Source: Flavobacteriales bacterium
GTDB lineage: Bacteria > Bacteroidota > Bacteroidia > Flavobacteriales_F > PHOS-HE28
Assembly (NCBI GenBank): GCA_016717305.1
Contig: JADKFY010000002.1
Location: 346,351-410,350, forward strand
Length of the DNA stretch: 64,000 nt
Direction: 5' to 3'
The translations under genes were made by a program, and so were the position numbers. The notes below the pieces were generated by a model, which made no database searches, was not told where the DNA came from, and saw only the letters and a program-made list of their open reading frames with translations. Positions 46,008 through 64,000 of the stretch are shown here, piece by piece; within the stretch, counting starts at the first letter, position 1; every line of letters starts with the position of its first letter.

Positions 46008-48107
46008 CTATTGCCGTACGAACGGAACCCTTCCGACCACCTCTCCTTTCGCGTCCAGGACCTGCAGGAAATACGAGCCGGGTTCCAGCGTGGCCACAGG
46101 GAATTCCAACCTGATCTCGCCAACGTTGTTCACTTTCCTGAGCTCGTGGACCATGCGGCCACTGGCATCCATGGTACGCAGAGTGATCTGTCCTTGCAAA
46201 GGGGTGTCCAAGAAGAGCGTTGCCGAAGCTGTAACGGGGTTGGGCACCACCAGCAAACCGGTCTTGCCGGTAAGCAGGGCACTGGCCATAGGAGAGTATT
46301 GTTGGGTTCCTGAACGTCCAACGGCAAGGATCCGGTAGTAATTGATGCCCCCTTTTCGCCGTGTGGTCCTCCAGGGAGTAGTTCGTGGTAGAACTGGACT
46401 GGCCCACAGCGGGTAGTCGGCCGACATCCTCAAAGGATATTCCATCGGTGGATCGCTGTGCGATGAAGTGATCGCTTTCACGTTCGGTAGAGGTGGTCCA
46501 TTCAAGTACCACACGGTCCATCTTGGGCTTCGCTTTCAAGTTGATCTCCCCACGGAGAGAACGGTACAGTCCAAGGAAGCCCCACCGCCCAATTGCCAAG
46601 AGAGGTCGAACGCCTGTCCATTGGTTGAGAAATTATCAATGTACATGATGTAGATCTGCCCGGTAGTCGCGGTAATAGGAGCTACCCAGCGGTCGCCGAA
46701 TGCATCTTCGGAATTGTCCACTGACCCATTGCCTGCCCCGGTGCTGCCTGTGGGTGCCGCGTAGGAGCAGCGCAAAGGCGGACCGGGCGGTGGGCAACTT
46801 ACGGAGGCCATTGGTCCCCAAACGGCAAAATCGTAGTCCGTGGCCACAATCGGTGCTATAGTGAAGCCGATGCTGCCGCCGGCACTGGGTGAGAAGTAGT
46901 ACCATGTACCTTGCCGTTCACCGGCCAACAGACAGCCCGCGTTGGTGCCGTCCAGATCCACAACATTGCCGGTGTTGGCACTGTTGTTATTGAAGGACTG
47001 GCCCCCGCAAATGGTGGCCCCGCCAGCACAATCCTGCGGTGCAGCAGGCGGTGGTTGGCAATTGATGGTTTGTGTGAAGGAGATCCCCGCAGCGGGTGAG
47101 GTACCGGATTGGAAGAGTTGACCCCCGCCTCCGCTGATACTGAGGCTATACCGGTTCTCGTATTGGAAAGGACCGGAGTTGTTATAAGTAAGTACGATCA
47201 CCTGCCCAATATTGACCCCGATAAGCACTTGCCTTGAGTACCCGGTAACCGAATAATAGGTGAATGCTCCCCCGTTGATGCTGACCCCGACATTGGACGA
47301 ACCCCAACCATCGCCGAACGAATCGAAAAGGCTGAGCACGTAAACGCAATCGCCTGCTGGAGGAGGAACGGGCGGAGCACAGGAAATACTTGCCGTCCAA
47401 CCCGGGTAGGGGATGCTCCCATCCGAAGAAAAGCCCAGCGTTAAACAGCCACTGGGGTCGGTGGATGTAAAGGGTCCGGGACTACCGGTTCCACTGAAGG
47501 AACCCAAGGGAGGAGACCCGGCGTTGGGGCCATTGAATATCGTAACGATATCGAAGTTCGCTTCGGTACTGAATTGCGAAAAGGTCATGGTGACCACATC
47601 TCCGGGTGTTGAAGGGCAGTAGGTGGTGTACGTGGTGCTGTTGTTGGCATAGTTGCCAGCGGCGCCGCCGCTATCGTAAATGGTGGAGCCACATGCGGGC
47701 GGTGGCGGCACGAGCGGTGCGCACGAGATATTGATGGCCCAGCCGGCGTAGTTGATCGAAAGATCGGAGGTGAACCAGAGCGTTACACAGCCCCCTGCCA
47801 CGGTACCGGAAATGGCGGGTGGAAGTCCGGTTCCGTCGAACAGACCCAGCATTGGTGCCGCGTTGGTCGCACCATCATGAATGGAAAGTTGATCGTACCC
47901 AGCTTCCGTATTGAATGCGGTAAAGGTGAGCGTGACCACTTGGCCCGCGGGTGCGCAGTAGGTCCATGTATAGTTTTCGTTGGCCCCGTAATTGCCTCCT
48001 GCACCACCGGTATCATAAACGGTGGTACCGCATTGTGCCATCATGGAAACTTGTGCGGCGCAGCCGGCTAAGCAGCACAGAAGAAGGGTGCGTGCATAGT
48101 TATTCAT
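46008..48107 (-). pseudogene. Giant modular T9SS cargo protein, paralog 3 (two N-terminal CUB-like domains), C-terminus split by two single-base homopolymer frameshifts
   Basis: Track ORF 46536..48107 (523 aa) carries two CUB-like domains (CGTTVYDTGGAGGNYGANENYTWTYC ... ; CGSTIYDSGGAAGNYANNSTTYTTYC ...). It ends ...GGASLDCTVLSVGRST*. The Ig-like domain continues in a second frame (VLEWTTSTERESDHFIAQRSTDG..., ORF 45988..46599) and the T9SS sorting domain in a third (GINYYRIL ... LLVVPNPVTASATLF ... GSYFLQVLDAKGEVVGRVPFVRQ, ORF 46008..46514). One extra C in the C4 run at 46548-46551 and one fewer in the C5 run at 46348-46352 restore a single frame matching the paralogs. Confidence 0.7.
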
Positions 48108-48561
48108 AGGGCACAGGTTGAATGTTGCGTTGTGCCTGTCTTAGCGCATCGTGAGCTTCGGGGTTTTCCAAGCGCCACGCTTGTTTTGCTTGTACAAAAG
48201 CCGCTTCATCCGCATCGGGGTGGCCTGTATCCAAGTATTGAGGGAACGGGGATCCCACCTCCACTGTTCCTTGCTTTACGGACCGGTGGGAAGGGTCATG
48301 GGTGAAGGTACCCTGCTCCAACCTGTTCAACGTCTTTTCCGTTCGCGAAGGAAGGATACGGCTGTCCATACGAACCTTGAGTTGTGTCTCTTGGATGGAA
48401 ACCATCGCCTGTGGGTCCAAGGAAGCGATCGCTGCACGGACGAATTTCTCGGCTGGACGAATGTCCACCGAGCAATTGAACCGATGCACCACTGTTGCCC
48501 CCTGCGCAAAGGACAGGAATGGGATCAGTGACAAAATGAAGATAAAGTAGGGTCTCATCAT
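48100..48561 (-). CDS. Small secreted protein B (HMA-like fold + conserved C-terminal motif), overlapping the start of paralog 3 by 8 nt
   Basis: Signal peptide MMRPYFIFILSLIPFLSFAQG (internal Met of track ORF 48100..48597). C-terminal FPQYLDTGHPDADEAAFVQAKQAWRLENPEAHDAL. Confidence 0.6.
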   Translation of the reverse strand: MMRPYFIFILSLIPFLSFAQGATVVHRFNCSVDIRPAEKFVRAAIASLDPQAMVSIQETQLKVRMDSRILPSRTEKTLNRLEQGTFTHDPSHRSVKQGTVEVGSPFPQYLDTGHPDADEAAFVQAKQAWRLENPEAHDALRQAQRNIQPVPYE

Positions 48562-48597
48562 GCGAACTTGGATCGTTTCCCCCCGAAAAACATGCAC

Positions 48598-49171
48598 AAT
48601 ATAGGAAAATGTTGTTTCGTGCTTTCACGTTTCCGACCACAGTAGTTGAACGTATCGAGCGGCCCGAGTGAAAAGCGTCCTTCCATTGGAAAGACGCATG
48701 TGGTTCGAAAAGGTTGCCAGCAAGCGTCTTGGACGCGTTCGTGCACCATGCGCATTGGTGTAAACCTAAGATGCTCAGAAAGCCGGTTATCCCCAGCGCT
48801 TTTGAGCCTTGCAAGGGCAACATAGCACAGCGATGGGCCTTCGCCCATTGTTCCAGAATGACGCGACGTTTCCAAGCCCTGGAAGGGCGAAATAGCACGG
48901 ACCTCCTAGATCTATTGGAGCGTATTGGCGTGGAACTATTACGCCCCTGTAGGGCTCCAAAGAACATTGCCTGCGCAAAACGATGGGTTGATCCCGCAGT
49001 CCGATACGACTGGCTGCGGGACCATCGCTTAGCTATGCCGGCCTCTCAGGGCTGTCCTTCAGGTAGTAACCCGCTCTTAGGTATACGCCAATGTGTACAA
49101 TGCGGGAGCACCGGGACCAGTGCGGACGAGGAGCGGGGAACGGACAGTTCAACCCAAGGCCACCGTATCGG
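48598..49171. promoter_or_regulatory. 575-bp non-coding spacer between cassette units with repeated motifs and palindromes (probable promoter/regulatory region for unit B)
   Basis: Two copies of a 26-nt motif, gccttgcaagggcaacatagcacagcg (about 48801) and gccctggaagggcgaaatagcacggac (about 48876). Also a palindrome atgggccttcgcccat (about 48826) and an inverted repeat cccgcag ... ctgcggg (about 48985-49015). No convincing ORF. Confidence 0.3.
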
Positions 49172-51139
49172 CTAACTTTTCTGGAAGCGCGCAGTGCCTG
49201 GTGCACTGCCATCGGGAAGGGAAAGGCGCACCAAATAGGTCCCTTGCACCAACTCGCCGATCTCCATCATCAGGAGACCGTCATCCAGTATGTTCATTTT
49301 CCGCTTCAGCACGATACGCCCGGTGAGGTCGAGCACTTCCACAACTGCCGTGCCCGTTACATGTTTCGGGGAAAGGATCTGTATGCGGTCCGTTGCTGGA
49401 TTGGGTACTACGCGGATCGCATTTTCCGAATGTAGGATCATGGCGGTGACCACGGGTGAGTATTCGAAACTACCGTCAAGATCGAGCTGCTTGACCCTGT
49501 AATAGTTCAAACCTGCGTATGGTGTGCGGTCCACGAGATCGTAATTGATCCGCTCTCTGGACTCACCAGCAGCGTCCATTTGCCCGATGGGGCTGAAAGA
49601 AATGTTATCGGAGGAGCGTTCCACGATGTAGGATGCGGAACCCCTTTCGGTAACGGTGGTCCATTCCACGAGTACTTCTTCTCCAACCGCAGTTGCCCTC
49701 ATGTCCACCAATTCAATGGGCAGCACATTGCAGTCCAACGATGCCCCGCCGGAGAGGCTCCAATTCAGGGTGAATGCTTGTCCGGTAATGTCGAAATTGT
49801 CGATGTACATGACGTACTTCTGCCCGGCGGTCACCGTGATGGCGGACGTGAATCCATCCACTGTGCTCATGGACCCATCACCCTCACTGGGGTCGCTTGA
49901 CGTGGTGCGCATACCGAGCTCGAAAGCGGAATTGGCGGGGTAGCCGGCCACGTTGGGAGGATAGGCCCAAGAGCAGCGCAAAGGTGGATCCGGCGGAGGG
50001 CAGGCAATGGTGTTATAGGGCCCCCAAATAGCGAAGTCATAGTCCACGTTCCCGGTCGGTGCAATGATGAGTCCGATAGTGCCGCTCACCGAGGGTGAGA
50101 AGAAGTACCAGGTCCCTTGTCGTTCATTCCCCATGAGGCAGCCACGGTTGGTCCCTGAGAGGTCTGATGTGCACCCGGTGTAGTCCGTGGAGTTGTTCAA
50201 TTGTTGATCACCGCAAACGGTATAGCCGCCTGAACAATCTTCTTGTGGTGTGGCAAAGTTGCTGATGCTGCCGACACATAGACCGAAGGTGCCAGTGGCG
50301 CCTGAGCGGCCCCAATAGCGGATCATGTAGGGTGCATTGGGGGTCAAGGTGAGGCAGCGCCGATCGATCCTTGGCATTCTCCCGACGCCATCATCGTCGT
50401 CACATTCCACATTGGCAAAGGAGGTGCAGTTGCCTGATACGAGCTGCATGACGCCGTCCTGCAAGGTGCCCGGCACAGAATTGATGATCACCACGCCATT
50501 GGAGGGTGCGGTGAAGCTGAACCAGACATCGCGGGAATTGGCATTGTTCCACGTACCGCCGCATGTCGGGTTGGGCGTTTGCGTGGAACGTGAAGCCCCC
50601 ACATTGGAATAGGTCTGCATGAAACAGCCATCGAGCACAAGCAAGGGGATGGCACCGCTGCATTCGTTGTTGGTCACTGCAGGTGGTGTGGTGGCGCAGG
50701 TAATGATCAGTGTTGCGCATAGGTTATTGCTCGCACAATTGTACCGATCAACCAGCACCCTCAATTGCCCGGTGAAGGTTGCGGTCCAGACCAGGTAGGA
50801 TGTGACACCTCCGCAGTAGCCACTATCGTCATTGAAGCCCAGACTTCCGCCGCCCGCATTGTTGTAGATCGTGATCTGGGTATCGAAGGGTGCACCGCAG
50901 GTGGAGAACGTATAGTTGCGACCTGTGGTCACGTTCACCAGAGCGTATTCTCCCCCGGTAATACACGAGATCGTTGTTTGGCCCGGGCAGTTCGGCGATA
51001 TGGTACCACCGGCCAGCAACGTATTGTTATTCGTGCACTGCCCAAAGCTGCCGATGTTCGAGGAGGCGATCACCAATGCCAGTAACAGTGCGGTTGGGAG
51101 CACCAATGGGCCGGCTTGGAAATTGGTCTGTGTTCGCAT
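49172..51139 (-). CDS. Giant modular T9SS cargo protein, paralog 4 (655 aa, intact)
   Basis: Signal peptide; N-terminal Cys-rich module; two PPC-like repeats. The conserved block reads DCSGGYTVCGDQQL ... RGCLMGNERQGTWYFFSPSVSGTIGLIIAPTGNVDYDFAIWGPYNTIACPPPDPPLRCSWA. An Ig-like domain and a T9SS sorting domain follow (... GTYLVRLSLPDGSAPGTARFQKS). Confidence 0.8.
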   Translation of the reverse strand: MRTQTNFQAGPLVLPTALLLALVIASSNIGSFGQCTNNNTLLAGGTISPNCPGQTTISCITGGEYALVNVTTGRNYTFSTCGAPFDTQITIYNNAGGGSLGFNDDSGYCGGVTSYLVWTATFTGQLRVLVDRYNCASNNLCATLIITCATTPPAVTNNECSGAIPLLVLDGCFMQTYSNVGASRSTQTPNPTCGGTWNNANSRDVWFSFTAPSNGVVIINSVPGTLQDGVMQLVSGNCTSFANVECDDDDGVGRMPRIDRRCLTLTPNAPYMIRYWGRSGATGTFGLCVGSISNFATPQEDCSGGYTVCGDQQLNNSTDYTGCTSDLSGTNRGCLMGNERQGTWYFFSPSVSGTIGLIIAPTGNVDYDFAIWGPYNTIACPPPDPPLRCSWAYPPNVAGYPANSAFELGMRTTSSDPSEGDGSMSTVDGFTSAITVTAGQKYVMYIDNFDITGQAFTLNWSLSGGASLDCNVLPIELVDMRATAVGEEVLVEWTTVTERGSASYIVERSSDNISFSPIGQMDAAGESRERINYDLVDRTPYAGLNYYRVKQLDLDGSFEYSPVVTAMILHSENAIRVVPNPATDRIQILSPKHVTGTAVVEVLDLTGRIVLKRKMNILDDGLLMMEIGELVQGTYLVRLSLPDGSAPGTARFQKS

Positions 51140-51148
51140 CGCAGGGTC

Positions 51149-51652
51149 CTATGGTGTGTCGCAAGGCGCGCTCAATATCAATTGCTCGTACGCTTCGGGA
51201 TAGCGGTCGATCCAGCGTGACTTTTCCGTGTCATAGGTTGCGGCATCCTGATCGGGGTTGCCGGTGTCGGGGTAGACGGGAAAAGGTTCAGCGGCAGGTA
51301 GCGGTGCGGGCCCGTTGGCGGTATCGCGAAGGGTGATAAGGCGCATGCCGGCCACCTCCAATGCGGCACCCATTTGGCCATAGCTAAGCGGGTACGGTGG
51401 TGAGATGAGCAAGTGCGTGGGTTCGCGGAGGAATTCGATCTCCGATCCCGGGAAGGAATTCAAGAGGGCAGAGAGCACCGGCTTGGTAGCACGATCCATG
51501 TTGCCGGTCCCCAAGATCATTTCATACACGGGAGCACCGGTCCCTTGAGCTTGAACACTGCTGTACACGCCCATGGTCAAGACGAGGCACAAGACCTTTA
51601 CGGAACGCGCAACGTGCCAGTGGGATGGGGAGAAAGTGCACAAATGTGTCAT
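51149..51652 (-). CDS. Small secreted protein C (HMA-like fold + conserved C-terminal motif), 9 nt upstream of paralog 4
   Basis: Hydrophobic signal-like N-terminus (... VKVLCLVLTMGVYSSVQAQG). C-terminal FPVYPDTGNPDQDAATYDTEKSRWIDRYPEAYEQL. Confidence 0.6.
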   Translation of the reverse strand: MTHLCTFSPSHWHVARSVKVLCLVLTMGVYSSVQAQGTGAPVYEMILGTGNMDRATKPVLSALLNSFPGSEIEFLREPTHLLISPPYPLSYGQMGAALEVAGMRLITLRDTANGPAPLPAAEPFPVYPDTGNPDQDAATYDTEKSRWIDRYPEAYEQLILSAPCDTP

Positions 51653-51964
51653 CTTCAGTTGACCCTCATACGGTGGATATGGACAAGACGTTACATTTTG
51701 GCGATAGTTGCTTTATAATCAACGTTGGAACAACGAATTTCATCGACGGAGTAAATCTTGCCTCATGAAAGGTGCTCAAATTCACCACTTGGCCCTAATT
51801 TATTCGGGCAGAAATTGATGTATAACGTAGCAATGATGATATCCGAATGGAGGTCAAATGAATTCCGTCAAAAGAGGAATTTATGGCCAACCACGTGCCA
51901 TGAGCACGAAGGAGCACCGTGCCGCGTTGATAGCGCGGACCTAAACACTACGGTCTATTGGGGG

Positions 51965-53170
51965 TCAAGGTCGTTCCGCTACGCCGGAATACGCCTTTAA
52001 TGCTTCTTTGAGCACGACCACCGCCCGTTGCAGGAGGTCTTTTTCGAGCACGTAGGCCAATCGAACTTGTTTCTTGCCCGATTCGGGTTGGGCGTAGAAA
52101 CCGGTGGCAGGTGCCATCATTACGGTGTAGCCATCAAGTTGGAACGACTCCAGCAGCCATTGGCAGAAATAATCGCTATCCGCAATAGGAAGTTGGGCCA
52201 CACAATAAAATGCGCCGTTGGGTTTCGGGCATATCACTCCGGGTATACCGTTCAGTCCATTTACCAGGATATCGCGGCGTTGCACATACTCGGCGGTAAC
52301 TGCTTCGAAATAGCTTTTTGGCGTGTTGAGAGCCGCTTCCGAAGCGATCTGTCCGAAGGTCGGCGGGCTGAGGCGAGCTTGGGCGAACTTTAGCACGGCA
52401 TCGTACAATTCGGCGTTGCGAGTGATGAACGCGCCCACGCGCGCACCACACATGCTGTACCGTTTGCTCACGCTATCAATGAGCACCACTTGTTGGTCGA
52501 TGCCTTCCAGCGTCATGCAACTTATGTGCTTGGCTCCGTCATAACAGAACTCGCGGTACACTTCATCGGCAAAGAGAAAGAGGTCGTGCTCCTTCACGAT
52601 ATCGCGCAGTCGTTGGAGCTCCTCAGCACCGTAGATCCGGCCGGTTGGATTACCGGGGTTGCAGATCAGGATCCCTTTGGTGCGTGGGGTGATCAACGAC
52701 CGGAACGTGCTTATGGGGGGCAGTGCGAATCCGTCCTCAATGGTGGTGGGCAGCGGGACCACCTTCACACCTGCGGCCAATGCGAAACTGTTGTAATTGG
52801 CGTAGAACGGTTCGGGAATGATCAATTCATCGCCTGGTTCAAAACACGCCATCATACCGAACAAGAGCGCCTCACTACCGCCGTTGGTGATGATGATCTG
52901 TTCGTGGTTGATATGGATGTCGTGCTCGGCGTAATAGGAAACCAGCCCCTTTCGGTAGCTCTCGTAGCCTGCCGAGTGGCTGTATTCGATCACGGTGCGG
53001 TCCAGGTTGCGGATCGCATTGAGCGCAACCTCGGGCGAGGCGATATCCGGTTGACCGATGTTGAGGTGGATGACCTTGGTGCCTCTAAGTTTTGCCGCCT
53101 CTGCGAAGGGAACGAGCTTGCGTATCGGCGAGGCGGGCATTAAGCGCCCTTTGGTGGAAATGGATGGCAT
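51965..53170 (-). CDS. PLP-dependent aminotransferase class I/II
   Basis: Full-length fold-type-I aminotransferase with the canonical NPxNPTG region (ICNPGNPTG), a Lys-bearing SVSKRYSMCGARVG motif and a C-terminal domain. Confidence 0.85.
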   Translation of the reverse strand: MPSISTKGRLMPASPIRKLVPFAEAAKLRGTKVIHLNIGQPDIASPEVALNAIRNLDRTVIEYSHSAGYESYRKGLVSYYAEHDIHINHEQIIITNGGSEALLFGMMACFEPGDELIIPEPFYANYNSFALAAGVKVVPLPTTIEDGFALPPISTFRSLITPRTKGILICNPGNPTGRIYGAEELQRLRDIVKEHDLFLFADEVYREFCYDGAKHISCMTLEGIDQQVVLIDSVSKRYSMCGARVGAFITRNAELYDAVLKFAQARLSPPTFGQIASEAALNTPKSYFEAVTAEYVQRRDILVNGLNGIPGVICPKPNGAFYCVAQLPIADSDYFCQWLLESFQLDGYTVMMAPATGFYAQPESGKKQVRLAYVLEKDLLQRAVVVLKEALKAYSGVAERP

Positions 53171-53204
53171 GAGCTGTAAATGGGCGACGAAGATCGTGGT
53201 TATA

Positions 53205-53280
53205 AGGGAATGCTTCGACTTCGCTCAGCACAAGTGAGAAGAATGCTTCGGCTTCGCTCAGCACAAGTGAATAAATGAAT
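53205..53280. repeat. Tandem direct repeat, 2 x about 33 bp, in the intergenic region
   Basis: gaatgcttcgacttcgctcagcacaagtgagaa / gaatgcttcggcttcgctcagcacaagtgaataa, about 2 mismatches. Confidence 0.5.
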
Positions 53281-53469
53281 GTGTTCCGGGTCCCGGCTTG
53301 GTGGCCGGGATGACGGGATGACGGGAATGAATGGAGTTCAGGAATACTTCGTTGCTCTGCCCGGTTCAGTTGCGGAGATTGCCAGTACATATGTGGAAAT
53401 GCAAACTAGCCCAACGAAAAAGGCCCTTCCACCGAACGGGGAAGGGCCTTTTCACAAGGAATTGACCGA

Positions 53470-53940
53470 TCAGTTCTTTTCAACAGGGGCCATTGGGCTG
53501 GCCTCTTTTACTGGTGATGTCGGTGTTGTAGGGGCAGTTTCAACCGTGCCTTTGATGCGGATCACTTTTTCGGGCGTGTTCACGGCGTTGCTGGAAACCG
53601 TCACGCTCTTGTTGATCGGGCCGGGACGCTTGGTGTCGTACTTCACGGTGATGGTGGTCTTGGCGCCGGGCAGGATCGGTTCGGTATCGCACTTGGGCAC
53701 TGTACAGCCGCAACTGCCTTTGCAATTTGTCAGGATCAGCGGTGCATCGCCGGTGTTCGTCACCGTGAATTCGCAAGTGCCGTTCGCACCTTGTGCAATG
53801 TCACCATAGTCATGCACCTCCTTGTCGAAGGAGATCTTGGGGCCTGGGCCATTTGGATCGGGGGCTGTGGCTGGAGCGTCTTGGGCGTTTGCCGCGAACA
53901 TGGAAAAGGCAAGGCCGAGGGTAAGTAGGAACTTGTTCAT
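53470..53940 (-). CDS. DUF1573-domain secreted protein
   Basis: Signal peptide; HDYGDIAQGANGTCEFTVTNTGDAPLILTNCKGSCGCTVPKCDTEPILPGAKTTITVKYD is the characteristic DUF1573 core; Pro/Thr-rich tail. Confidence 0.75.
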   Translation of the reverse strand: MNKFLLTLGLAFSMFAANAQDAPATAPDPNGPGPKISFDKEVHDYGDIAQGANGTCEFTVTNTGDAPLILTNCKGSCGCTVPKCDTEPILPGAKTTITVKYDTKRPGPINKSVTVSSNAVNTPEKVIRIKGTVETAPTTPTSPVKEASPMAPVEKN

Positions 53941-54003
53941 GGTCTTCGTTCTTCAGAATTGGTTGTTCGTGAAAATGCAGTTATCGTGCCAAAGCGGCAA
54001 GGA

Positions 54004-54468
54004 TCAATGAGGCACTGCGGTTGGGGCCATTGGTGCGGCGGGCTTTACCGGGGAGGTAGGCGAAGAAGCCGGAGCTTCGATCATTCCTTTGATGGTGATC
54101 ACCTTGCTGGGCGCATTGGTGGCATTGCTGGTGATCGTTACGCTCTTGGCGATAGCACCAAGGCGTGAAGAATCATACTTCACCTTGATGATGCTCGTTG
54201 CTCCGGGTTTGATGGGGGCGGTTTCGCATTGGGGCACGGTGCAACCGCAACTGCCTTGGCACTGTGAAATGATCAAGGGTTGATCGCCGGTATTGGTCAC
54301 CACGAATTCGCATTCGCCATTACCGCCTTGCGTGATGGTGCCGTAGTCATGCACTTCCTTGTTCAAGGACAACATCGGTCCGGTTCCGCCAACTGGTTTC
54401 ATTTCAGGCTGGGCCATGGCCGCAAAGGAAAGGAAGCTGAGGCCAAGGGTAAGGATCACGTTTTTCAT
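54004..54468 (-). CDS. DUF1573-domain secreted protein (paralog)
   Basis: HDYGTITQGGNGECEFVVTNTGDQPLIISQCQGSCGCTVPQCETAPIKPGATSIIKVKYD; start at the internal Met MKNVILTLGLSF of track ORF 54004..54531. Confidence 0.75.
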   Translation of the reverse strand: MKNVILTLGLSFLSFAAMAQPEMKPVGGTGPMLSLNKEVHDYGTITQGGNGECEFVVTNTGDQPLIISQCQGSCGCTVPQCETAPIKPGATSIIKVKYDSSRLGAIAKSVTITSNATNAPSKVITIKGMIEAPASSPTSPVKPAAPMAPTAVPH

Positions 54469-54769
54469 GCGGTGATAAGGTTGTTTCAAGTTTGTACGAC
54501 GAAAGTAGAGAGGTCGGTTCCGCGCCATCAAGACCTTAACAGGACATTAACAGGTGGCCGACCGCCCTTCTCCCAGGGGGAGGCCCTCCCGGCAGTTGCA
54601 GTGGTCTGGTACCAACAGCTGGGTCCTTGGCGTCTTTGCGGTACGATGCTGGAATGAACGGTTCACCGGGCGGGCATTCAACTTCCGCTGTTTTGACCTT
54701 GGGACGGAGTGAAGCCTTCGGTTACTTTTGCGATCCGCCGAAAACCGGTGGTCATGGAAGCGAAGGAAG

Positions 54770-57422
54770 ATGGAAAGCAAGGAGATCCCCAAACGATTCG
54801 AGCCGGGCACGAGTGAAGCGAAGTGGTACGCGCACTGGATGCAGAAAGGCTACTTCCGCAGTGTGCCCGATGAGCGTGAGCCATACACGATCGTGATCCC
54901 GCCGCCCAATGTGACGGGTGTGCTGCACATGGGCCACATGCTAAACAACACCATCCAGGACGTGTTGGTGCGCCGTGCGCGTATGCAGGGAAAGAACGCA
55001 TGTTGGGTACCGGGCACGGACCATGCATCCATCGCCACGGAAGCCAAGGTGGTTCGTTTGTTGGGTGAACAAGGCATCAAGAAAAGTGTGATCGGTCGCG
55101 AGAAATTCTTGGAACATGCTTTTGCTTGGAAAGAGAAATACGGCGGTGTGATCCTGGAGCAGTTGAAGAAGTTGGGCGCCAGTTGCGACTGGGAGCGCAC
55201 GCGCTTCACCATGGAGCCTGACCTGAGCGAGGCGGTGATCGATGTGTTCATCGACCTGCACAAGAAAGGGTTGGTGTACCGTGGCCTGCGCATGGTGAAC
55301 TGGGATCCAGTTGCGTTGACGGCGGTGAGCGATGAAGAGGTGATCCACAAGGAGGTGAACTCGAAGTTGTACTACGTTCGGTACAAGGTCGAAGGCGCCG
55401 CAGAAGGAGTGGGTGACCATTGCTACAACGCGTCCGGAAACGATCTTAGGTGATACAGCGGTGGCGGTGCATCCGGAAGATGAACGTTATGCGCACTTGA
55501 AAGGGAAGCGCGTGTTGGTGCCCTTGTTGGATCGAAGCATCCCGATCATTTTCGATGAGTACGTGGAGCGTGAATTCGGTACCGGTGCGTTGAAGGTGAC
55601 TCCTGCACATGACGTGAATGACCAAGAGTTGGGCAAGAAGCACAAGTTGGAAACCATCGACATTCTGGAGCCGAACGGAACCTTGAGCGCAGCGGCACAA
55701 CTGTACGTTGGGGAGGACCGCTTCATCGTTCGCAAGAAGATCGTAAAGGAGCTGGAGGAGAAGGGCTTTCTGGTGAAGACGGAAGACATCAAGAACAAGG
55801 TGGGTTATAGTGAGCGCACCGATGCCGTGATCGAGCCGCGCTTGAGCTTGCAGTGGTTCGTGAAGATGAGCGAGTTGGCAAAACCGGCGTTGGACGTGGT
55901 GATGGACGGCACAGTGAAATTGCATCCGCAGAAATTCGCGAACACCTATCGCCATTGGATGGAGAACGTGCGCGATTGGTGCATCAGTCGCCAGTTGTGG
56001 TGGGGTCAACGGATCCCTGCGTGGTACAACTCGAAGGGTGATGTAGCCGTGTGCAAGACCGAGGCCGAAGCGATCACTTACTTCACTTCGAATGGACTTT
56101 CAACAGAAGGGCTGAGACAGGACGAGGATGTCATGGACACCTGGTTCAGCAGCTGGTTGTGGCCGATCAGTGTGTTCGATGGATTCAAGGATCCGAACAA
56201 TGCGGACATCAAGTACTACTACCCAACGAACGACCTTGTTACGGCACCGGAGATCCTCTTCTTCTGGGTGGCACGCATGATCATGGCGGGCAAAGAATAC
56301 CGTAACGAAGTGCCGTTCAAGAACGTGTACCTCACAGGCATCGTACGCGACAAGATCGGTCGCAAGATGAGCAAGAGCTTGGGCAATAGTCCGGACCCCT
56401 TGGAGTTGATCGAGAAGTTCGGTGCGGATGGTGTGCGCGTGGGCATGCTGCTTACATCACCTGCGGGAAATGATCTGCCGTACGACGATTCGTTGTGCGA
56501 ACAAGGACGCAACTTCAGCAACAAGATCTGGAATGCATTCCGACTCGTGAAGGGCTGGAGCGTTGATGACCGCGAGCAACCGGCGAGCAGTGCCATTGCA
56601 GTTGAATGGTTGCAAAGCAGGGTGGAACGCGCCACCACAGAGATCGATGGCTTGTTCGCGCAATTCCGGATCAGCGAAGCCTTGATGGCGACGTACAAAC
56701 TGATCTGGGACGATCTGTGCAGTTGGTATTTGGAGAGCGTGAAGACCGGCTTCGTGAAGAATGCTGAGGGCGAAGGTGTTCCTGAACCGATCGATCGCAA
56801 GACCTACGAAGCGACGGTCGCGATCTTTGGATCCGTGATGAAATTGCTCCATCCGTTCATGCCCTTCCTGAGTGAGGAGCTGTGGCATTTGCTGAGCGAG
56901 CGTAAGGAAGGTGACGATATCATCGTAGCCAGTTGGCCGAAGGGTGGTGAAGGCGATCCGCAATTGGAGAGCGAGATGCAACATGCGTTCGAGCTGGTCA
57001 CAGCAGTGCGCAATGTGCGCAATGAACGCGGCATGAGCCCGAAGACCGCGATCGAAGTGCAGGCCATGGGCACTGCTGCTATGCGAGAAGCCGCGGTCGA
57101 TGTTGCGAAGAAATTGGCGAACATCAGCGAAGTGCAAAACGTGGCGCAGGCCAAGTCCGGTTCGGTCGTGTTCCTAGTGGGCACTACGGAATATGGCGTT
57201 GACCTTGGTGGGAACATGGACACGGTGGCCGAGGTGAAGAAAGCCGAAGCTGAACTGGGCCATTTGCGCAACTTCCTATCCAGTGTGGACAAGAAGCTGA
57301 GCAACGAGCGCTTCGTGGCCGGTGCACCACCGCAGGTATTGGAGACCGAGCGCAAGAAGAAGAGCGACGCAGAGTCGAAGATCAAGGCATTGGAAGAACG
57401 GATCGGGCAGTTGGCGGGATAG
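54770..57422 (+). CDS. valS: Valyl-tRNA synthetase, open reading frame broken by a +1 frameshift near 55404-55413
   Basis: Track ORFs 54728..55453 (HIGH motif [14 protein letters not shown]) and 55413..57422 ([22 protein letters not shown] ... KMSKSLGN ... C-terminal coiled coil) together form one collinear ValRS. The junction ...[13 protein letters not shown] / VTIATTRPE shifts by one base in a GG/GGG context. Start at the internal Met ([12 protein letters not shown]). Confidence 0.85.
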
Positions 57423-57431
57423 ACTTTCCAC

Positions 57432-58955
57432 CTACGGCATGAACATCGGCGCACCCGGTCCGATGGGCAGTTCCAACAATACCCAAATGATCAGGAGCAA
57501 GCTCCAGCCGATCAGGAATACGACGGAGTAGGGGAGCATGGTGCTGATCACTGTACCGATCCCCGCTTTCTTGTCGTAACGTGCAATGAAGGCCACGATC
57601 AACGCGAAATAGCTCATCATCGGGCTGATGATGTTCGTGACGCTATCGCCAACGCGGTACGCCATCTGGGTGAATTCCGGTGAGTAGCCGAGGAGCATGA
57701 ACATGGGAATGAAGACCGGCCCCATGATCGCCCATTTTGCGGAGGCGCTGCCCATCACCATGTTGATCGTGGCGCTCACGAGCACGAAGCTCAGCATCAA
57801 GGGGATCGGTCCGAGGTCGGCGGCTTTCAGCACATCGGCACCTTTGATGGCGAGGATCAGTCCGAGGTTGGTCCAATTGAAGTAGGCAACGAACTGCGCG
57901 GCAAAGAACACGAGAACGATGTAACTGCCGAGCGTCTCCATGCTCTTGGCCATACCACCCATCACATCGCTGTCGTTCTTGAAGGTCTTGGCACCGATGC
58001 CATAAGCGATACCAGCGATCGCGGCGCTCACGAAGATCAAGGCGACGATCCCGCTCATGAATGGTGAGTGTAGCACCTCGTGTGTTTTCGGGTCGCGCAG
58101 GAAGCCCTCCGAAGGCAATAGTCCGGCAAGGATCACTGCCGTGAAAAGCAATGCAGCGACCAGTGCCCATTTCATGCCGCGCTTTTCCGCTGCGGTCGCG
58201 TTCCGCAGTTCCTCGGGTTTCTCATCGCCGGTGTATTCACCCAAGCGCGGAATGACGACACGCTCTGTTACCCACGTGCCGAGTCCCGCGATCACGAAGG
58301 TGCTCACGAACATGAAGTAGTAGTTGCATGCCGGATTCACCAAGTAGGTTGGGTCTATGATGCGTGCAGCCTCTTGGCTCAATCCGGCCAGAAGGGGGTC
58401 GATCGTGCCCAGCAGCAGGTTTGCGCTGTAGCCGCCGCTCACTCCAGCAAATGCAGCGGCGAGTCCTGCTAGCGGATGACGACCTGCGGCCAGGAAGATC
58501 ACAGCCGCTAATGGAACGAGAAGCACGTATCCGACCTCGCTGGCGGTATTGCTCATCACACCGGCAAAGACGATCACGAAAGTGAGCAGCTTCTTCGGTG
58601 AAGCCATTACAAGCGCGCGCATCACGGCGCCGATCAAGCCACTGCCTTCGGCGATCCCGATGCCGAGCATGGCTACGAGCACGGTGCCCAGCGGTGCGAA
58701 TGCTGTGAAATTCACCACCATCTTCGTAAGGATCATGTGGAGGCCTTCCACCGAAAGCAGGTTGAACGGCGTGATCGTTTCGCCGGTACCGGGGTGCAGC
58801 GCCGAGAACCCGGTCAGGCTGAACAAGCCGCTGAGCAACACCACGATGAATGCCAATAGCGCGAAGAGCGTTGCCGGGTGCGGCAAGGCGTTGCCCGCTT
58901 TCTCGATGATGGAAAGGAAGCGATCGACGCCACTGCGCTTGACTGTTTCGGCCAT
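57432..58955 (-). CDS. AbgT-family transporter (p-aminobenzoyl-glutamate / MtrF-type)
   Basis: 507 aa, about 12 TM segments; the N-terminus, overall length and hydropathy match the AbgT family. Confidence 0.8.
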
Positions 58956-59260
58956 GTGTTCCGAGTTGGGTGAAAGGCAAAGAAAGGAAAGTCGATCACA
59001 TCACTCTTCCTCCACTAAATGGACCAATGGATCACAGCTCCACGAATTGCTCTCGGACGAATTTCCGTTGTTCAAGGAGGTAACGATGAAATAGGAACCC
59101 GATCGCAAGAAGTATCGAGATCGCATCCACCGTTCGATCAACAGTGATCCCCTAGCTGATCCAACAACGGATCCGCTACCATAACGGAATGTCGAGAGGA
59201 GCTTGCTGGACGTTCAATTTCCGTGCTGAACTCATCCACGAACACACTTGGGGTCGAAAC

Positions 59261-61626
59261 CTACGGCAACTGCTGCAACACCACATTGGACGCAATGGAC
59301 CCACCGATATTCACCAATATCGGATCACGGTCATTGTTGATCCCGGTGTACTTAACGATTCCATCCATATTCACATCATCGCGGTAATAGCCAGTTGTGG
59401 TGTTTGATGCGATCGCTCCACCGATCCGTACGAGGATCAGGTCGCGATCATTGTTGATGCCGGTATACTTTAAGTTTCCATCGCCACGGCAATCGCCAGC
59501 CCAGAGTACCCGGCGCGTGCCAATAGTGGCTTGCGCATTGGTCCCATACGTTGTTGTTGTGGTCAAGCTGAAGTCGACCACGGTGGTCGTCGTGCTCAAT
59601 GCTCTGGATGTATTGGTCATTACCCCCAAGTGGTTGCGGTGACGAATAGCAACGCGATAGTTCCCTGCGGGTCTATTGAAGAGCACGGGGCCTGTGCCGG
59701 AGGCTGCCACTACATCGCCATCGCGTTGCACCAAAGCACTTTTGGTTGCTACTACAGCGTACGGCGATGTTGTGTTGCGCAATTCAACCACCACCCAATC
59801 CACGATCGCGTTGTTGCCGGTAACGGCGAGTGCTGCTGCGGTTGTTGTTTCGCCACCACCGCCATTCACGTAGGTGTAGCCGAGCGCGGTATAGGGCTCG
59901 GTGAAGGCAGGGTGTCGGTGATCACCACGTTGAAGGCCGTATCCGTACCGGTGTTCTGGAAGCGGATGGTGTAGTCGACCCACTCGTCCTCCTCCAAGGT
60001 CCAGCTGCTGGAACTTCCAGAAGAGGTGGTGGCGAGCTTGTCGTTGGGGTCGTAGGCACCGGTAACGATGCGCGTTACGCTTGCGCTGTTGTTGCCCAGG
60101 TCCACATCGGTGTTGGCGCTCGATACGGTCGCCGTAGCGATCAGCTCAGTCCCCAGCAGGCCCACATCCGGCGGCACTTGGAAACGCACGTTGATGGTGC
60201 GCTGTTGGAAGGCGTTCATCAGGCTGAATGCGGGGGCTGTCCAGGTAAGGGTGTTGCCCGCGATGCATGAGGGTGCGGGAATGGCGCTGAGGAAGCTGAT
60301 CAAGGGGTCGACCGTCATGGAGAGGGTGATGGTGCCCGTGGCCGCAGGCGAAAGGTTGGTGAGCGGTCATCGATTGGGCCATCTGGAATCCGGGCCGTGC
60401 CGCACCGGCGCCCATGAGCAAGCGCAGGTCGAGCGGATCGCCGGGAGCGCAGCCCACGTTGCGCGTCATGGGCGTGCCATTGCTCACCGTGGTCGTAACG
60501 GTGCAACTCTGCTCCAGCACGGGATGCTGCTCGGTGAAGGTGTAGTTGCCGAAGGGAAGCGCGATGCTGAATTGCCCGCTGGAATTGGTGTTGGTGTAGT
60601 ACGGGCCCGGCGTGACCTGGATGACCGTGTTCGGCACATTGTTCTCTCCACCGTTGTACGAGCAGTTGCCGTTGCCATCCACGTAAAGCCGACCGTTCAC
60701 CAGTCCGCAGGTGGCGCCGATGTCCTCGATCACCACCTGCACGGAATCGCGGCAAGGGGGCTGCGTTCCGTACATGGTGAACTCATCGGTGCTGACCATG
60801 GCGTAGTAGGTGCCCGGTGCCAGGTTGTTGAAGGTGATCACACTGGGCGTTTCGCTGGCCGTGAAATACGTGTTGCAGGGGGAGCCAACGAAGGTGCCAT
60901 CGGCATTCTTCAACTTGATCGGTAATCCGCTGTTCATGGGTGCGGCACCAACGGAAATGATCGCGCTACCGATCGAGGAATTGGTGCATGAACCCGTGGT
61001 GGAGAGCACCTGCAGTTCAGGAAGGTCCACCAAGGGTGGCAGGTAGATGTCGAAAGTTCCGGGGCAGCCACTGCCGTCGGTGTAGTTCACAGTGACGTTT
61101 TGCTGGGGTGCTGCACCAACGATGGTGACATCGTAGTACGAGTAGTACGTGCAGGCATCGGGCAGCTCCTGCCAGGTAGCGGCATAGCCCACCGGCTCGA
61201 AGGTGTACGGTCCTGGACCGTGCTGAGTGGCGGTCCCGGGTGGCGGAGGCATGCCGTTCTCTGTACCGGCGAAGAAGATCGCACGCGAGTAGGTTCCGGT
61301 GCAAGAATAGCCGGGCACCACTGTGGAATAGGGGTAGCTGTTCACGTTCTCGATCGTGCCCGACCCGGTAGCCTGCTCCCCCATGGCATCGGTTACCGTG
61401 ACCTGGTACGTCCCTGCCGCCAATCCAGCAAGTTGTGGCGTGTTCTCGCCCGTGCTCCACATGTAGCTGTACGGCCCAGTGCCTCCGCTCGCATAGGCGT
61501 ACATTATGCCCAGGGGCTGACCGCAAATGGCGAATCCGTTCACTAGCCATCCACTGTAAGGGCCATCAACAGGCAACCATGGAAGGCCAGCAGGAAGGTG
61601 GATGTGAGCCGCAGGTGTTTCATCAT
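59261..61626 (-). pseudogene. SprB-repeat / SdrD-B-like / DUF11-domain cell-surface protein with C-terminal dockerin-like repeats, fragmented over at least 4 reading frames
   Basis: Signal peptide MMKHLRLTSTFLLAFHGCLLMA (ORF 61543..61812). A SprB repeat (CGQPLGIMYAYASGGTGPYSYMWSTGENTPQLAGLAAGTYQVTVTDAMG) and SdrD-B-like motifs (LVNGRLYVDGNGNCSYNGGE ...) follow in ORF 60146..61576. DUF11 conserved-repeat pieces (ITLSMTVDPLISFLSAIPAPSCIAGNTLTWTAPAF ... YDPNDK ... WVDYTIRFQNTGTDTAFNVVITDTLP) sit in ORF 59866..60318. Dockerin-like repeats (GDCRGDGNLKYTGINNDRDLILVRIGG, DVNMDGIVKYTGINNDRDPILVNIGG) sit in ORF 59261..59983. One junction (about 60352-60362) is a 1-nt indel in a CC/GG context. Confidence 0.6.
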
Positions 61627-63786
61627 AGTTCGGTCTTGGTGAAGGGCATGGTGAAGGTCGGGATCATCGAACACGCGTAAAAAGTAAAGTCCGGTGACAA
61701 GTTCGCTCCGTATCGAAGGGCTTTCATCCATGGCTCTGGTGCCCTCATCAAGCAAGCGGCCATCACTGGAAAGATAGCCCACGAACAAGGGCTGGTGATC
61801 GGTGTGATCCACCGGATGAACAGTTGGTCGTTTGCCGGGTTGGGGTACGCTGGGTGGGATTGCATTATGAGCCTGGATGCCGTACTGAACTCCGCCACGA
61901 GCACGCTTGGCTCGGTGATCATGGTGGGTTGAAGTCGAAGTAGATCGGGCTGTATTCGTGATCTCGGCACCGGGTAGGAGACCGCTGCGTGGTTTTCATT
62001 CGGAAAGCGATGAAGCCTTGACTCCCCAGCAGGTCGGTCGTGCTGTCGGGTAGCAGGATGTCGGCGAAGGTGAACACCAGTTCGCGGCCGTCGCCAAAGG
62101 AAGGTACAAAGGCATGCGAAGCGGCGAGGATCTCCAGGCTTTGGATGTCGAGGTCCGCTTCGAGCTCATCCCGGATCACAACGGTGAAAGCGGTATCCGT
62201 ACCCGTGTTCTGGAACCGCACAACGTAGTCGATCCAGGTGTCGACATCAAGGAAGAACTGTTCGTTGCTGCCGGTCACGTCGGTGGTGCCGTGCTTGTCG
62301 TTGGGGTCGTAGCTTCCAGTGACGGTCCGTGTCAGTACCTTGGTGTTGTTTGCCACCGAAGTTTCGCTGCTGGAGTTCGTGGCAATGGCTGTGATCATCA
62401 ACTCTTCACCCAGGAGACCGATATCCGGTGGCAAGGTCCCGCTGATCCGAAAGCCTGCAACGAGAAGGCGGATACAACTGGGAAGTTCCACAGTCCATTT
62501 CCTCCGGTTGCCGTACCGCCATCAGAGGTGGAAACAGGATCCAGCAGAGCAGGGTAGTTCAACGATAGCGAAATCGTCCCACTTGGATACGCAGTATTGT
62601 TGCGCACCGAGCCCCCAGATGGTGAACGGGAAACCGGGCCGGAACGCGGTGGTGTGAGAGCAGCACTTCCACATCATGCGGGACGAAGCTGCTATCGGCA
62701 AGGTCGATGGTGAGTGACGGGGTTCCACCGTTCACCGTGAAAGGCACGGGCGCCAAAATTGGGCAGAGCTGTGCTTCATCCACCAATGGCTGCGCCAAGG
62801 TGTACAATCCGAAGGGCATGCCGATGAAGTAGTCGCCCTGCGCATCGGTCATGCCGTAACGCGGCCCGGGTTGCACTGTGAGGATGCGATAAGGAAGTCC
62901 CGGTTCGTCGGTATCCTGGACACAATCCTGATCGGCATCGTTGAAGATGGTCCCGGAAACGCCCCCGCATGGTGCTGCTATCTCGGGGACGTTGAAACCT
63001 CCTGCGGGATTGGTGCAATAGGGTTGCCCATCCCATCCGTTCACCCAGGAAGAGATCGTGTAATCCCCAGCTGCAAGGCCGGTGATCGCATAAGGTGTGT
63101 TCAGCGGTGGGTAGAACAACTGCTCGTTCTGCGTCGAAAAGCTGTACAGCCGCACGTAAACTAAGCCCTGCCTCCCAGCAGGGTCACGTTCATGGTGCGT
63201 TCGCTTGACCTTCGCAGGATCCCGTGATGGCGTTCACCTGCACAACGCTATTCTCCACGTTACTGACAATACTTCCCAGATCCACCTCGCCAGGGCATCC
63301 GTTGAGGTCCGCGATGGTGATCACGTTCGGAGTACTTGAACAGACCCATTCGTAACCGAAGTGGGAGGGGAACGACTGTGGCGCTTCACTATATATGTAA
63401 GGGGGTGTTCCGCTCAGTGAACTCTCGAAGACATCCACCAGCCCCATACAATTGAAAGAGCAATCCGGTTGGTACTCCATGAAGCTGCCTTCGATCGCCA
63501 GTTCGAACAGGGCCACTACGGTGGCTGAACCGTTGGCGACCCCTCCGATCGCATCCGTGACGGTCACGTCATAAGTTCCAGGCGCAAGACCGCCGATCGT
63601 TTGTGTGGTCGCTCCGGTACTCCACGAATAAGTATATGGGGGAATACCATTGGCCGGCATGGCACGGGCGCTTCCATTGTTCAAGCCGCATCGAGCGGGG
63701 AACGCTTGCATGGTAACGGTAACGCTGTGGCCAAGTGCAGCGAAAAGCAAGGCGATCAGTAAAGTGATGGATCTTGCGTGTGTCAT
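61623..63786 (-). pseudogene. SprB-repeat / SdrD-B-like / DUF11-domain T9SS cargo protein, fragmented over at least 4 reading frames
   Basis: Signal peptide MTHARSITLLIALLFAALGHS. A SprB repeat (CGLNNGSARAMPANGIPPYTYSWSTGATTQTIGGLAPGTYDVTVTDAIGG) lies in ORF 63190..63810. An SdrD-B-like segment (VSGTIFNDADQDCVQDTDEPGLPYRILTVQPGPRYGMTDAQGDYFIGMPFGLYTL) lies in ORF 62559..63155. A DUF11 segment (YDPNDKHGTTDVTGSNEQFFLDVDTWIDYVVRFQNTGTDTAFTVVIRDEL ...) lies in ORF 61919..62491. A T9SS sorting domain is split between ORF 61623..61970 (HPAYPNPANDQLFIRW) and ORF 61543..61812 (... LVTGLYFLRVFDD). The frame carrying the garbled last residues (...FTKTEL*, ORF 61623..61970) stops with TGA at 61623-61625, overlapping the ATG (61626-61624) of the next gene's MMKHLRL signal peptide (ATGA). 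Confidence 0.6.
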
Positions 63787-63796
63787 CAGTGTGGAT

Positions 63797-64000
63797 CTAA
63801 TGGCGTTCAATGATCAATGGAAGTCGTGTGGCGCCTCCGTTGCGTAAGGTCAATTCAACGAGATAGGCACCACTGGGAATACCGCTGAGCATGAATCGAC
63901 GTTCGCCATTGGCGTTCGAGAAGGATCGAACGGTTCGTCCATCGATGGACAACAGGGTCACGCGCGACGGATCCTGGCTCAGCCCACGGATCTCAAATGC
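63797..64000 (-). CDS. C-terminal end (T9SS sorting domain) of a further secreted protein whose body lies beyond the window
   Basis: Reverse-strand translation ...FEIRGLSQDPSRVTLLSIDGRTVRSFSNANGERRFMLSGIPSGAYLVELTLRNGGATRLPLIIERH* (stop TAG at 63797-63799) has T9SS sorting-domain character. Confidence 0.6.
   Translation of the reverse strand, partial: AFEIRGLSQDPSRVTLLSIDGRTVRSFSNANGERRFMLSGIPSGAYLVELTLRNGGATRLPLIIERH

Follow-up and report, generated by a model that had tools for sequence, protein, structure and literature searches.

We analysed a stretch of 64,000 nucleotides (the window) from an uncultured Flavobacteriales bacterium (GenBank assembly GCA_016717305.1, contig JADKFY010000002.1, positions 346,351 to 410,350 of the forward strand). 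All coordinates below are window positions, and the region read closely is 59100-64000 on the minus strand, where two neighbouring genes for surface adhesins, gene 1 and downstream of it gene 2, are broken into many open reading frames (ORFs). Judged by sequence searches, gene 2 ends in a member of a large, strongly conserved C-terminal family that has no Pfam or NCBIfam annotation and is distinct from dockerins. For the locus as a whole, we are confident, if short of certain, that the genes are intact in nature, that their small insertions and deletions (indels) are consensus errors, and that the C-terminal module of gene 2, about 250 residues long, is not a dockerin.

Reference contigs for comparison were obtained by an exact-protein look-up with the neighbouring AbgT-family transporter, which returned six contigs of other metagenome assemblies and the NCBI metagenome-assembled genome (MAG) GCA_017995035.1. 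In the order of its domains gene 2 encodes a signal peptide, an SprB-like repeat, sandwich domains, DUF11/CLIPPER, DUF7619 and the module. Pfam and NCBIfam profiles were run on the ORF pieces of the window and on intact reference proteins, with the Pfam gathering scores as cut-offs. They gave no match to the module (residues 657-911 of the intact protein) and no match to a type IX secretion system (T9SS) C-terminal domain (CTD; TIGR04183/PF18962, TIGR04131) in the intact protein of 911 or 912 residues. The last ORF of gene 2 in the window (240 codons, 59261-59983) likewise had zero Pfam or NCBIfam matches, and no sequence match to the module was found in the PDB. The module occurs as a single copy in the window. 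The last 212 residues of an intact ortholog of 912 residues from another assembly (P0121, encoded by an intact 912-codon gene of contig L088) are 100% identical to those encoded there.

The family to which the module belongs is large. Sequence searches found 1359 close homologs, and a library clustered at 50% identity contained 8549 module representatives at E<=1e-3, of which 1631 reached E<=1e-30. The layout, a beta-sandwich and then the repeat tail, runs from LEGPY...LMxDxLR...EPYTALGY through DWVxVELR, QRDGDVV and RHRNHLG to two repeats and a terminal R-x-x-QLP, and the QLP terminus was present in 238 of 267 retrieved sequences. Identity between modules of otherwise unrelated proteins was 50-65%. 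With few exceptions, the module extended to the final residue in the best 150 matches, although the proteins ranged from 255 to 3228 residues, and in loci from GTDB it ended at the last residue of the ORF in 107 of 114 cases. The GTDB species representatives contained at least 586 copies, all of them in Flavobacteriales or Bacteroidota MAGs and several per genome. Module genes also cluster, with two or three of them within 12 kb in 25 of 80 GTDB loci (L007-L086), and a single MAG supplied 5 of the best 80 loci.

The proteins that carry the module are diverse in their remaining parts, which are of kinds typical of secreted proteins and T9SS cargo. The passengers of 63 module proteins included delta-60/DUF5122 propellers, GEVED, Kelch, reprolysin, M36 peptidases, choice-of-anchor J/Q/GloVer, PKD and fn3 domains, and one of them matched the 'T9SS-dependent M36' family (E=7e-234); no T9SS type A or type B CTD was among the families listed for these 63 proteins. 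An N-terminal hydrophobic segment was present in 102 of 132 complete module representatives. When the 120 closest homologs of gene 1 were inspected, about 100 ended in Por_Secre_tail and 4 (about 3%) ended in the module, which is joined at the same point after DUF7619 where the paralogs carry Por_Secre_tail. Thousands of clusters at 50% identity with no counterpart in Pfam, NCBIfam or PDB make this family the useful lead from the locus.

Repeat tail of gene 2 and its relation to dockerins

The earlier note, which was made from the letters of the window, described the end of gene 2 as two dockerin-like repeats in place of a T9SS sorting domain and proposed that they bind a cohesin-like partner. 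The missing T9SS domain and the two repeats of 39 residues are real, while the dockerin identity fails in every profile test, and with it the basis for a cohesin-like partner. The repeats are about 72% identical to each other and are also visible in the DNA as a direct repeat of 80 nucleotides (59286-59365 and 59403-59482, spacing 117 nucleotides, 73% identity). Their consensus is [GD]-D-x-[NR]-x-D-G-x-[LV]-K-Y-T-G-x-N-N-D-R-D-x-I-L-V-x-I-G-G-x-I-A-S-N.

Type I dockerins have two EF-hand-like loops of 12 residues (D1, N/D3, D/N5, G6 and an acidic residue at position 12), each followed by a helix. The possibility that the tail is a divergent dockerin, which would dock the adhesin onto a cohesin-like scaffold protein, draws on real similarities to this family (PF00404): the repeats are C-terminal and internally duplicated, and each contains a D-x-N-x-D-G-type loop at a distance of about 39 residues from the other, which is near the dockerin spacing. 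The profile comparisons do not bear this out. The intact 911-residue protein gave no Dockerin_1 match at E<=1, and when 34 diverse tails of the family were scanned, a single one touched Dockerin_1 at E=0.024, below the curated cut-off and about what chance would give in 34 scans. A profile of the tail found no PDB chain at E<=10, although many dockerins are present in that database, and hhalign of the tail against two verified dockerins (1ohz_B, CelD) gave a probability of 2.9%, with an alignment of the two D-x-N-x-D-G loops only. On the combined results of the Pfam scans, the PDB profile search and hhalign, membership in the dockerin family was rejected.

The residues that are conserved within the family differ from those of dockerins as well. 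What is invariant in the repeats is a core of Y-x-G-x-x-N-D-R-D-x-x-L-x-x-x-G, which has no dockerin counterpart, and not the D-x-N-x-D-G loop. The loop of repeat 1 is degenerate across the family at positions 1, 3 and 5 (GDVTFNG, GNVVRDG and others), and the loop of repeat 2 has D1, N3, D5 and G6, whereas its position 12 is a G, so that the acidic ligand is missing. In the hits seen, the repeats never occurred without the preceding sandwich of 170 residues. AlphaFold2 (AF2) models contained no helices in the repeat tail, and a helical F-hand is thus not predicted for it; the pLDDT of the tail was <50, compared with about 85-97 for the preceding sandwich. We therefore regard a divergent dockerin as very improbable, and the segment belongs instead to a different family, that of the unannotated C-terminal module.

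Proposed role of the module

The C-terminal domain of each paralog decides the fate of the protein at the cell surface. We give about equal weight for and against the reading that it is an alternative C-terminal domain for sorting or surface retention, which interacts with a single conserved partner or with a ligand on the cell surface, perhaps together with calcium. On gene 2 the module would then do a job equivalent to that of a T9SS CTD and would be recognised by that one partner or ligand. Such a role would explain the strict C-terminal position, the conservation across unrelated passengers, the presence of 'choice-of-anchor' families among these passengers and the multiplicity per genome. 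A broader version, more tentative and in our judgement somewhat less likely than its opposite, is that the module represents an undescribed class of sorting or anchoring CTD parallel to T9SS type A, by which an uncultured Flavobacteriales lineage would route or tether hundreds of exported proteins through one conserved partner.

The parallel with the T9SS type A CTD (PF18962/TIGR04183) is one of position and distribution. Both are found at the extreme C-terminus of surface or secreted Bacteroidota proteins with a signal peptide and several domains, both are present many times in a genome and on passengers that are unrelated to one another, and in the array paralogs the type A CTD directly follows DUF7619, which is the place of the module in gene 2. 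In contrast to the type A CTD, the module has about 250 residues instead of 70-100, is much more conserved, ends in QLP and contains the duplicated tail of 39 residues. It also has no profile similarity to the type A CTD: when hhalign was run between the module and the paralogs' type A CTDs, the probability was 3% and only the generic strand pattern aligned, for which reason distant homology was rejected. It has been reported that the type B (TIGR04131/CHU_C) and type C (ChiA-like, cl41395) CTDs serve as alternative C-terminal secretion signals beside type A in Flavobacteriia (PMC10202324). No TIGR04131 match was present in the 63 module-bearing proteins, and type C, which was compared by its description only, is described as a region of about 100 residues (PMC10202324), whereas the module has about 250.

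Alternatively, the module might serve as a passenger domain with a function of its own (as a calcium-dependent lectin or an enzyme, for example), for which the C-terminal place is no more than a tendency, and not as a sorting or anchoring signal. The invariant polar motifs (HRNH, QRDGD, DW, NDRD) resemble a ligand- or metal-binding site, and the larger size, the far better conservation and the lack of detectable homology to type A CTDs (3% in hhalign) all agree with a domain of this kind. Together with the D-x-N-x-D-G loops, the polar motifs suggest the binding of a metal, possibly calcium, or of a glycan. However, a passenger domain would not be expected to reach the final residue of nearly all proteins that carry it, with QLP as the conserved end, to be attached to unrelated passengers including 'choice-of-anchor' families, or to occupy in paralogs the position that otherwise belongs to the T9SS CTD, and a ligand-binding anchor is compatible with a sorting role in any case. 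We thus consider a pure passenger domain unlikely, although less so than a dockerin.

Several points weigh against the sorting or anchoring reading and against the novelty of the module. The argument for the role is drawn from architecture and distribution, and clustering of the ORFs in the 80 GTDB loci revealed no conserved non-module neighbour gene, but only antisense artefacts and passenger families. The AF2 models give the repeat tail no confident fold, and the module may be described in other resources. Should the module act as a signal for sorting or anchoring, it would represent a second route of surface display in abundant wastewater and freshwater Flavobacteriales and would permit the prediction of their secretomes.

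Frame breaks in the two genes

Compared with the reference contigs, the window contains 18 small indels of 1-2 bp each and one deletion of 373 bp. The frame changes at 16 places in gene 1 and at 3 in gene 2, which leaves more than 10 ORF pieces, in agreement with the earlier count of at least eight. These 19 lesions lie within 3.3 kb (59905-63198), about one per 175 bp, and no indel was found on either side in the alignment to the reference contigs, in 63199-64000 and 56667-59904. The adjoining 12 kb (47402-59391) is 98.5-99.7% identical to a MAG contig (L002) and has a single coding frameshift, in valS, so that the break density is indeed higher than in the surroundings. This valS gene (54728-57422, plus strand) is split into two ORFs by the insertion of one base (C to CC) at about 55407, and its product is an intact valyl-tRNA synthetase of 883 residues in near-identical contigs. 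Since valS is essential, the frameshift indicates that this assembly carries indel errors outside the adhesin locus as well.

Intact copies of the adhesin genes are available from seven independently assembled contigs with 97-99.5% DNA identity to the window; the adhesin genes themselves are about 97% identical to these contigs and the downstream flank about 99% or more. Uninterrupted lengths in other assemblies are 697, 764 and 911/912 codons for the adhesin genes and 883 codons for valS, and the intact genes of the set found through AbgT come from short-read contigs. A protein of 697 residues (P0268), which was located with the conceptually repaired gene 1 and is 97% identical to it, contains SprB, DUF7619 and Por_Secre_tail domains, and on its contig (L087) the order is 697-764-911-abgT with every gene intact. 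The intact 764-residue protein has DUF11, DUF7619 and Por_Secre_tail, and the 911-residue gene that follows it with an overlap of one base has DUF11 and DUF7619 without Por_Secre_tail. When the 911-residue protein of contig L004 was compared with the window by tblastn, it was recovered in four frame pieces with 97-100% identity.

The breaks are best explained, on these sequence comparisons, as assembly or consensus errors. Intact orthologs exist, the small indels are of 1-2 bp and mostly of the homopolymer type (about 11 of 18 alter the length of a run of 2-5 identical bases), the substitutions are largely synonymous, and valS has a lesion of the same kind; together these features led us to the error reading, as the earlier note had also preferred, with the 373-bp deletion left out of this explanation. 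In gene 1 there are 34 substitutions, of which 20 are at third codon positions and 21 are synonymous, and in gene 2 there are 38, of which 26 are synonymous. Mostly synonymous substitutions combined with one indel per two substitutions indicate a selected gene with indel errors of the sequencing type and not a decaying one. The small indels would most likely stem from an unpolished long-read consensus in a place where strains differ in the copy number of paralogs, and their clustering could result from short-read polishing that failed where reads of different haplotypes or paralogs map ambiguously. In this sense we infer that the errors are concentrated here because of unpolished long reads over a heterogeneous array.

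Genuine decay, in which this strain would carry both adhesin genes as true pseudogenes and the indels would be real mutations, has to be weighed against this, and several observations speak for it and thus against consensus error. The 19 lesions in 3.3 kb have clean flanks, a loss is plausible given that strains differ in the copy number of their adhesin arrays, and the 373-bp deletion lacks a homopolymer context and takes both the start of the module and the DUF7619 strand on which the isopeptide Asn is expected. Such a blunt deletion is atypical of consensus error and could by itself be enough for gene 2 of this strain to be a true pseudogene. Furthermore, the error interpretation compares other assemblies of closely related strains and not the same DNA, and the cause of the local clustering is an indirect conclusion. 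In contrast, the ratio of indels to substitutions in gene 1 (16:34) is far from that of natural decay, the substitutions are still mostly synonymous, no break requires an in-frame nonsense substitution, about 11 of the 18 small indels are changes of homopolymer length, the essential valS has the same type of lesion and the genes are intact in seven other assemblies. Decay therefore remains what it was in the earlier note, the less likely option, and we regard it as improbable. If consensus error is accepted, the fragmentation of the two genes has no biological meaning but warns of a local patch of indel errors in this assembly, and the gene calls in this patch need repair and not a pseudogene label.

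Other causes of the breaks were set aside. Low complexity, to which the error had been attributed in the earlier note, was rejected, because the region contains no tandem repeats and the only similarity within the window is that of short paralog patches at about 80%. Six of the 18 small indels in 59905-63198 lie within 6 nucleotides of a GATC, compared with 15% expected (P=0.04), and this excess was too weak to be used as a signature of methylation-linked nanopore error. Genes suspected to be split elsewhere in the window turned out to be separate genes, and exact-protein look-ups with further proteins of the window, which were meant to widen the comparison of error rates, gave zero matches.

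The 373-bp deletion deserves separate consideration. It takes residues 575-698 of the 912-residue protein and one additional base (124 codons and 1 nucleotide), by which DUF7619 loses its C-terminal two thirds and the module its first 35 or so residues, and the lost part of DUF7619 is that expected to carry the isopeptide Asn. The ends are blunt, with no microhomology between them. An origin by slippage was rejected, because GATCACCGA occurs near both ends but is not used by the junction. Whether the deletion is a real variant of the strain or an artefact of polishing or assembly is, in our estimate, roughly evenly balanced: it could be an artefact of polishing, a real deletion that shifts the frame, or a real in-frame variant to which one further single-base error was added.

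Layout and strain variation of the adhesin array

The region read contains three successive genes of one family, the positions of which are given with those of the breaks in Table 1, and genes 1 and 2 are tandem paralogs within a tandem array of surface-adhesin genes. Two neighbouring adhesin genes had been placed here by the earlier note, and both are present on the minus strand. Its start for the first of them, 63810, corresponds to a TTG that lies more upstream within this ORF, and we place the start of gene 1 at the ATG at 63786 (MTHARSITLLIALLFAALGHS...); the stop is the TGA at 61625-61623. The noted overlap between this stop and the start of gene 2 is present as well, and the same ATGATGA is found in the intact locus of L087. 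Gene 2 starts at the ATG at 61626 or at 61623, where its ortholog P0121 has the N-terminus MMKHL, and ends with the TAG at 59263-59261; it is followed by the AbgT-family transporter (57432-58955) and then by valS.

Table 1. Coordinates of the adhesin genes, their C-terminal parts and the frame breaks in the window
Feature	Position	Strand	Basis or remark
Upstream paralog, 3' end	63797..64000	-	T9SS type A sorting domain; stop TAG 63799-63797; gene runs off the window
Gene 1, adhesin paralog	61623..63786	-	Pfam on ORF pieces, three-frame reading, intact ortholog P0268
Gene 1 stretch expected to encode T9SS type A sorting domain	61623..61945	-	97% DNA identity to L004 3879-4208
Junction ATGATGA	61620..61626	-	gene 1 stop TGA (61625-61623) overlaps gene 2 start ATG (61626-61624 or 61623-61621)
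Gene 2, ortholog of intact 911/912-residue protein	59261..61626	-	tblastn, Pfam on intact protein
Remaining module, 213 codons	59264..59904	-	homolog searches; most of beta-sandwich and repeat tail, ending QQLP
Two 39-residue internal repeats (the segment called dockerin-like in the earlier note)	59264..59506	-	DNA direct repeat, family alignment
Gene 1 indels, n=16	63198 (-1), 63167 (-2), 63160 (+1), 62656 (+1), 62616 (+1), 62448 (-1), 61996 (+1), 61946 (-1), 61921 (-1), 61881 (-1), 61848 (-2), 61772 (-1), 61720 (-1), 61709 (+1), 61664 (-1), 61659 (-1)	-	alignment to contigs; positions approximate
Gene 2 breaks, n=3	~61547 (-1), ~60366 (+1), 59904/59905 (-373 bp)	-	alignment to contigs
373-bp deletion junction	59904..59905	-	same gap vs L001, L003, L004, L006, L087

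Gene 1 encodes, in this order, a signal peptide, an SprB repeat, a transthyretin-like sandwich, a DUF11-like region, DUF7619 and a T9SS type A CTD. The SprB repeat (PF13573) scored 30.5 bits against a cut-off of 28, and DUF7619 scored 112 bits (E=2.7e-32). In the pieces of gene 2, DUF11 scored 49 bits (E=8.7e-13) and DUF7619 47 bits (E=2.6e-12), the latter over profile positions 1-46 of 133 only, because it is cut by the 373-bp deletion; in the intact ortholog the two domains reached 54 and 139 bits. Pfam did not report SprB (PF13573) in gene 2, where residues 23-91 align at 49% with the SprB repeat of gene 1 and can be called SprB-like by homology only. The order of domains proposed in the earlier note is thus supported for the signal peptide, SprB and DUF11, but not for the SdrD-B-like domains: SdrD B-like (PF17210) reached 15 bits (E=0.02-0.03) in both genes, under the gathering score of 29.7, and CarboxypepD_reg and SpaA gave sub-threshold matches only in the ORF pieces. 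Such matches point to the transthyretin-like clan and not specifically to SdrD-B. The architecture is that of the SprB-repeat/DUF11 (CLIPPER)/DUF7619 fibrillar adhesins of Bacteroidota; the passenger parts are ordinary, and only the C-terminal module of gene 2 departs from the norm. DUF11/CLIPPER and DUF7619 are CnaA-like stalk domains that are predicted to form intramolecular isopeptide bonds, which for DUF7619 is predicted as Lys-Asp-Asn (PMC12617251).

The T9SS sorting domain at the end of gene 1, which the earlier note had described, was not detectable with PF18962 or TIGR04183 in the broken ORFs of the window, where 7 indels occur within 320 bp, and is instead established through the DNA. 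The stretch at 61626-61945 has 97% DNA identity with the end of the gene for the 764-residue paralog, where the CTD is encoded and where L004 3879-4208 specifies Por_Secre_tail at residues 689-754 (E=1.2e-8), and the intact ortholog P0268 carries PF18962. By this homology, gene 1 is a true member of the T9SS type A CTD class (PF18962/TIGR04183) and belongs to the T9SS cargo.

The array itself differs among strains. Upstream of abgT, a haplotype with three paralogs (L087, L004) is found beside one with two (the window, L001, L006), in which about 2.2 kb, roughly L087 2435-4663, is lacking. The two-paralog haplotype carries a recombinant gene with a body of the 697 type and a sorting domain of the 764 type, which is intact in L001; gene 1 is this hybrid, and the corresponding window positions are 61880-61945. 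In gene 2, 32 of the 38 substitutions relative to all references sit in 60200-60800, whereas elsewhere in the gene and in the 3 kb downstream of it the identity to the references is about 99.5%, so that this patch looks like an imported segment of another allele. Of the six contigs found through AbgT, five break off within the array or close beside it, while the window runs through it. The comparison of these contigs shows that the region is structurally heterogeneous in the population.

The third gene, of which the window contains the 3' end, aligns there with a partial gene of 170 residues in L087, and its last 54 codons (ORF 63797-63961) match both TIGR04183 (E=1.5e-4) and PF18962 (E=0.003). 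This sorting domain differs from its counterpart in L087 by 5 substitutions, all of them non-synonymous, whereas the substitutions in the gene bodies are mostly synonymous. Further T9SS cargo is encoded nearby on the minus strand (46536-51652), namely a protein of 655 residues with GBD_T9SS_assoc and Por_Secre_tail and a CUB-domain protein for which Por_Secre_tail is present in related contigs. These type A CTD proteins indicate that the genome uses type A sorting domains beside the new module.

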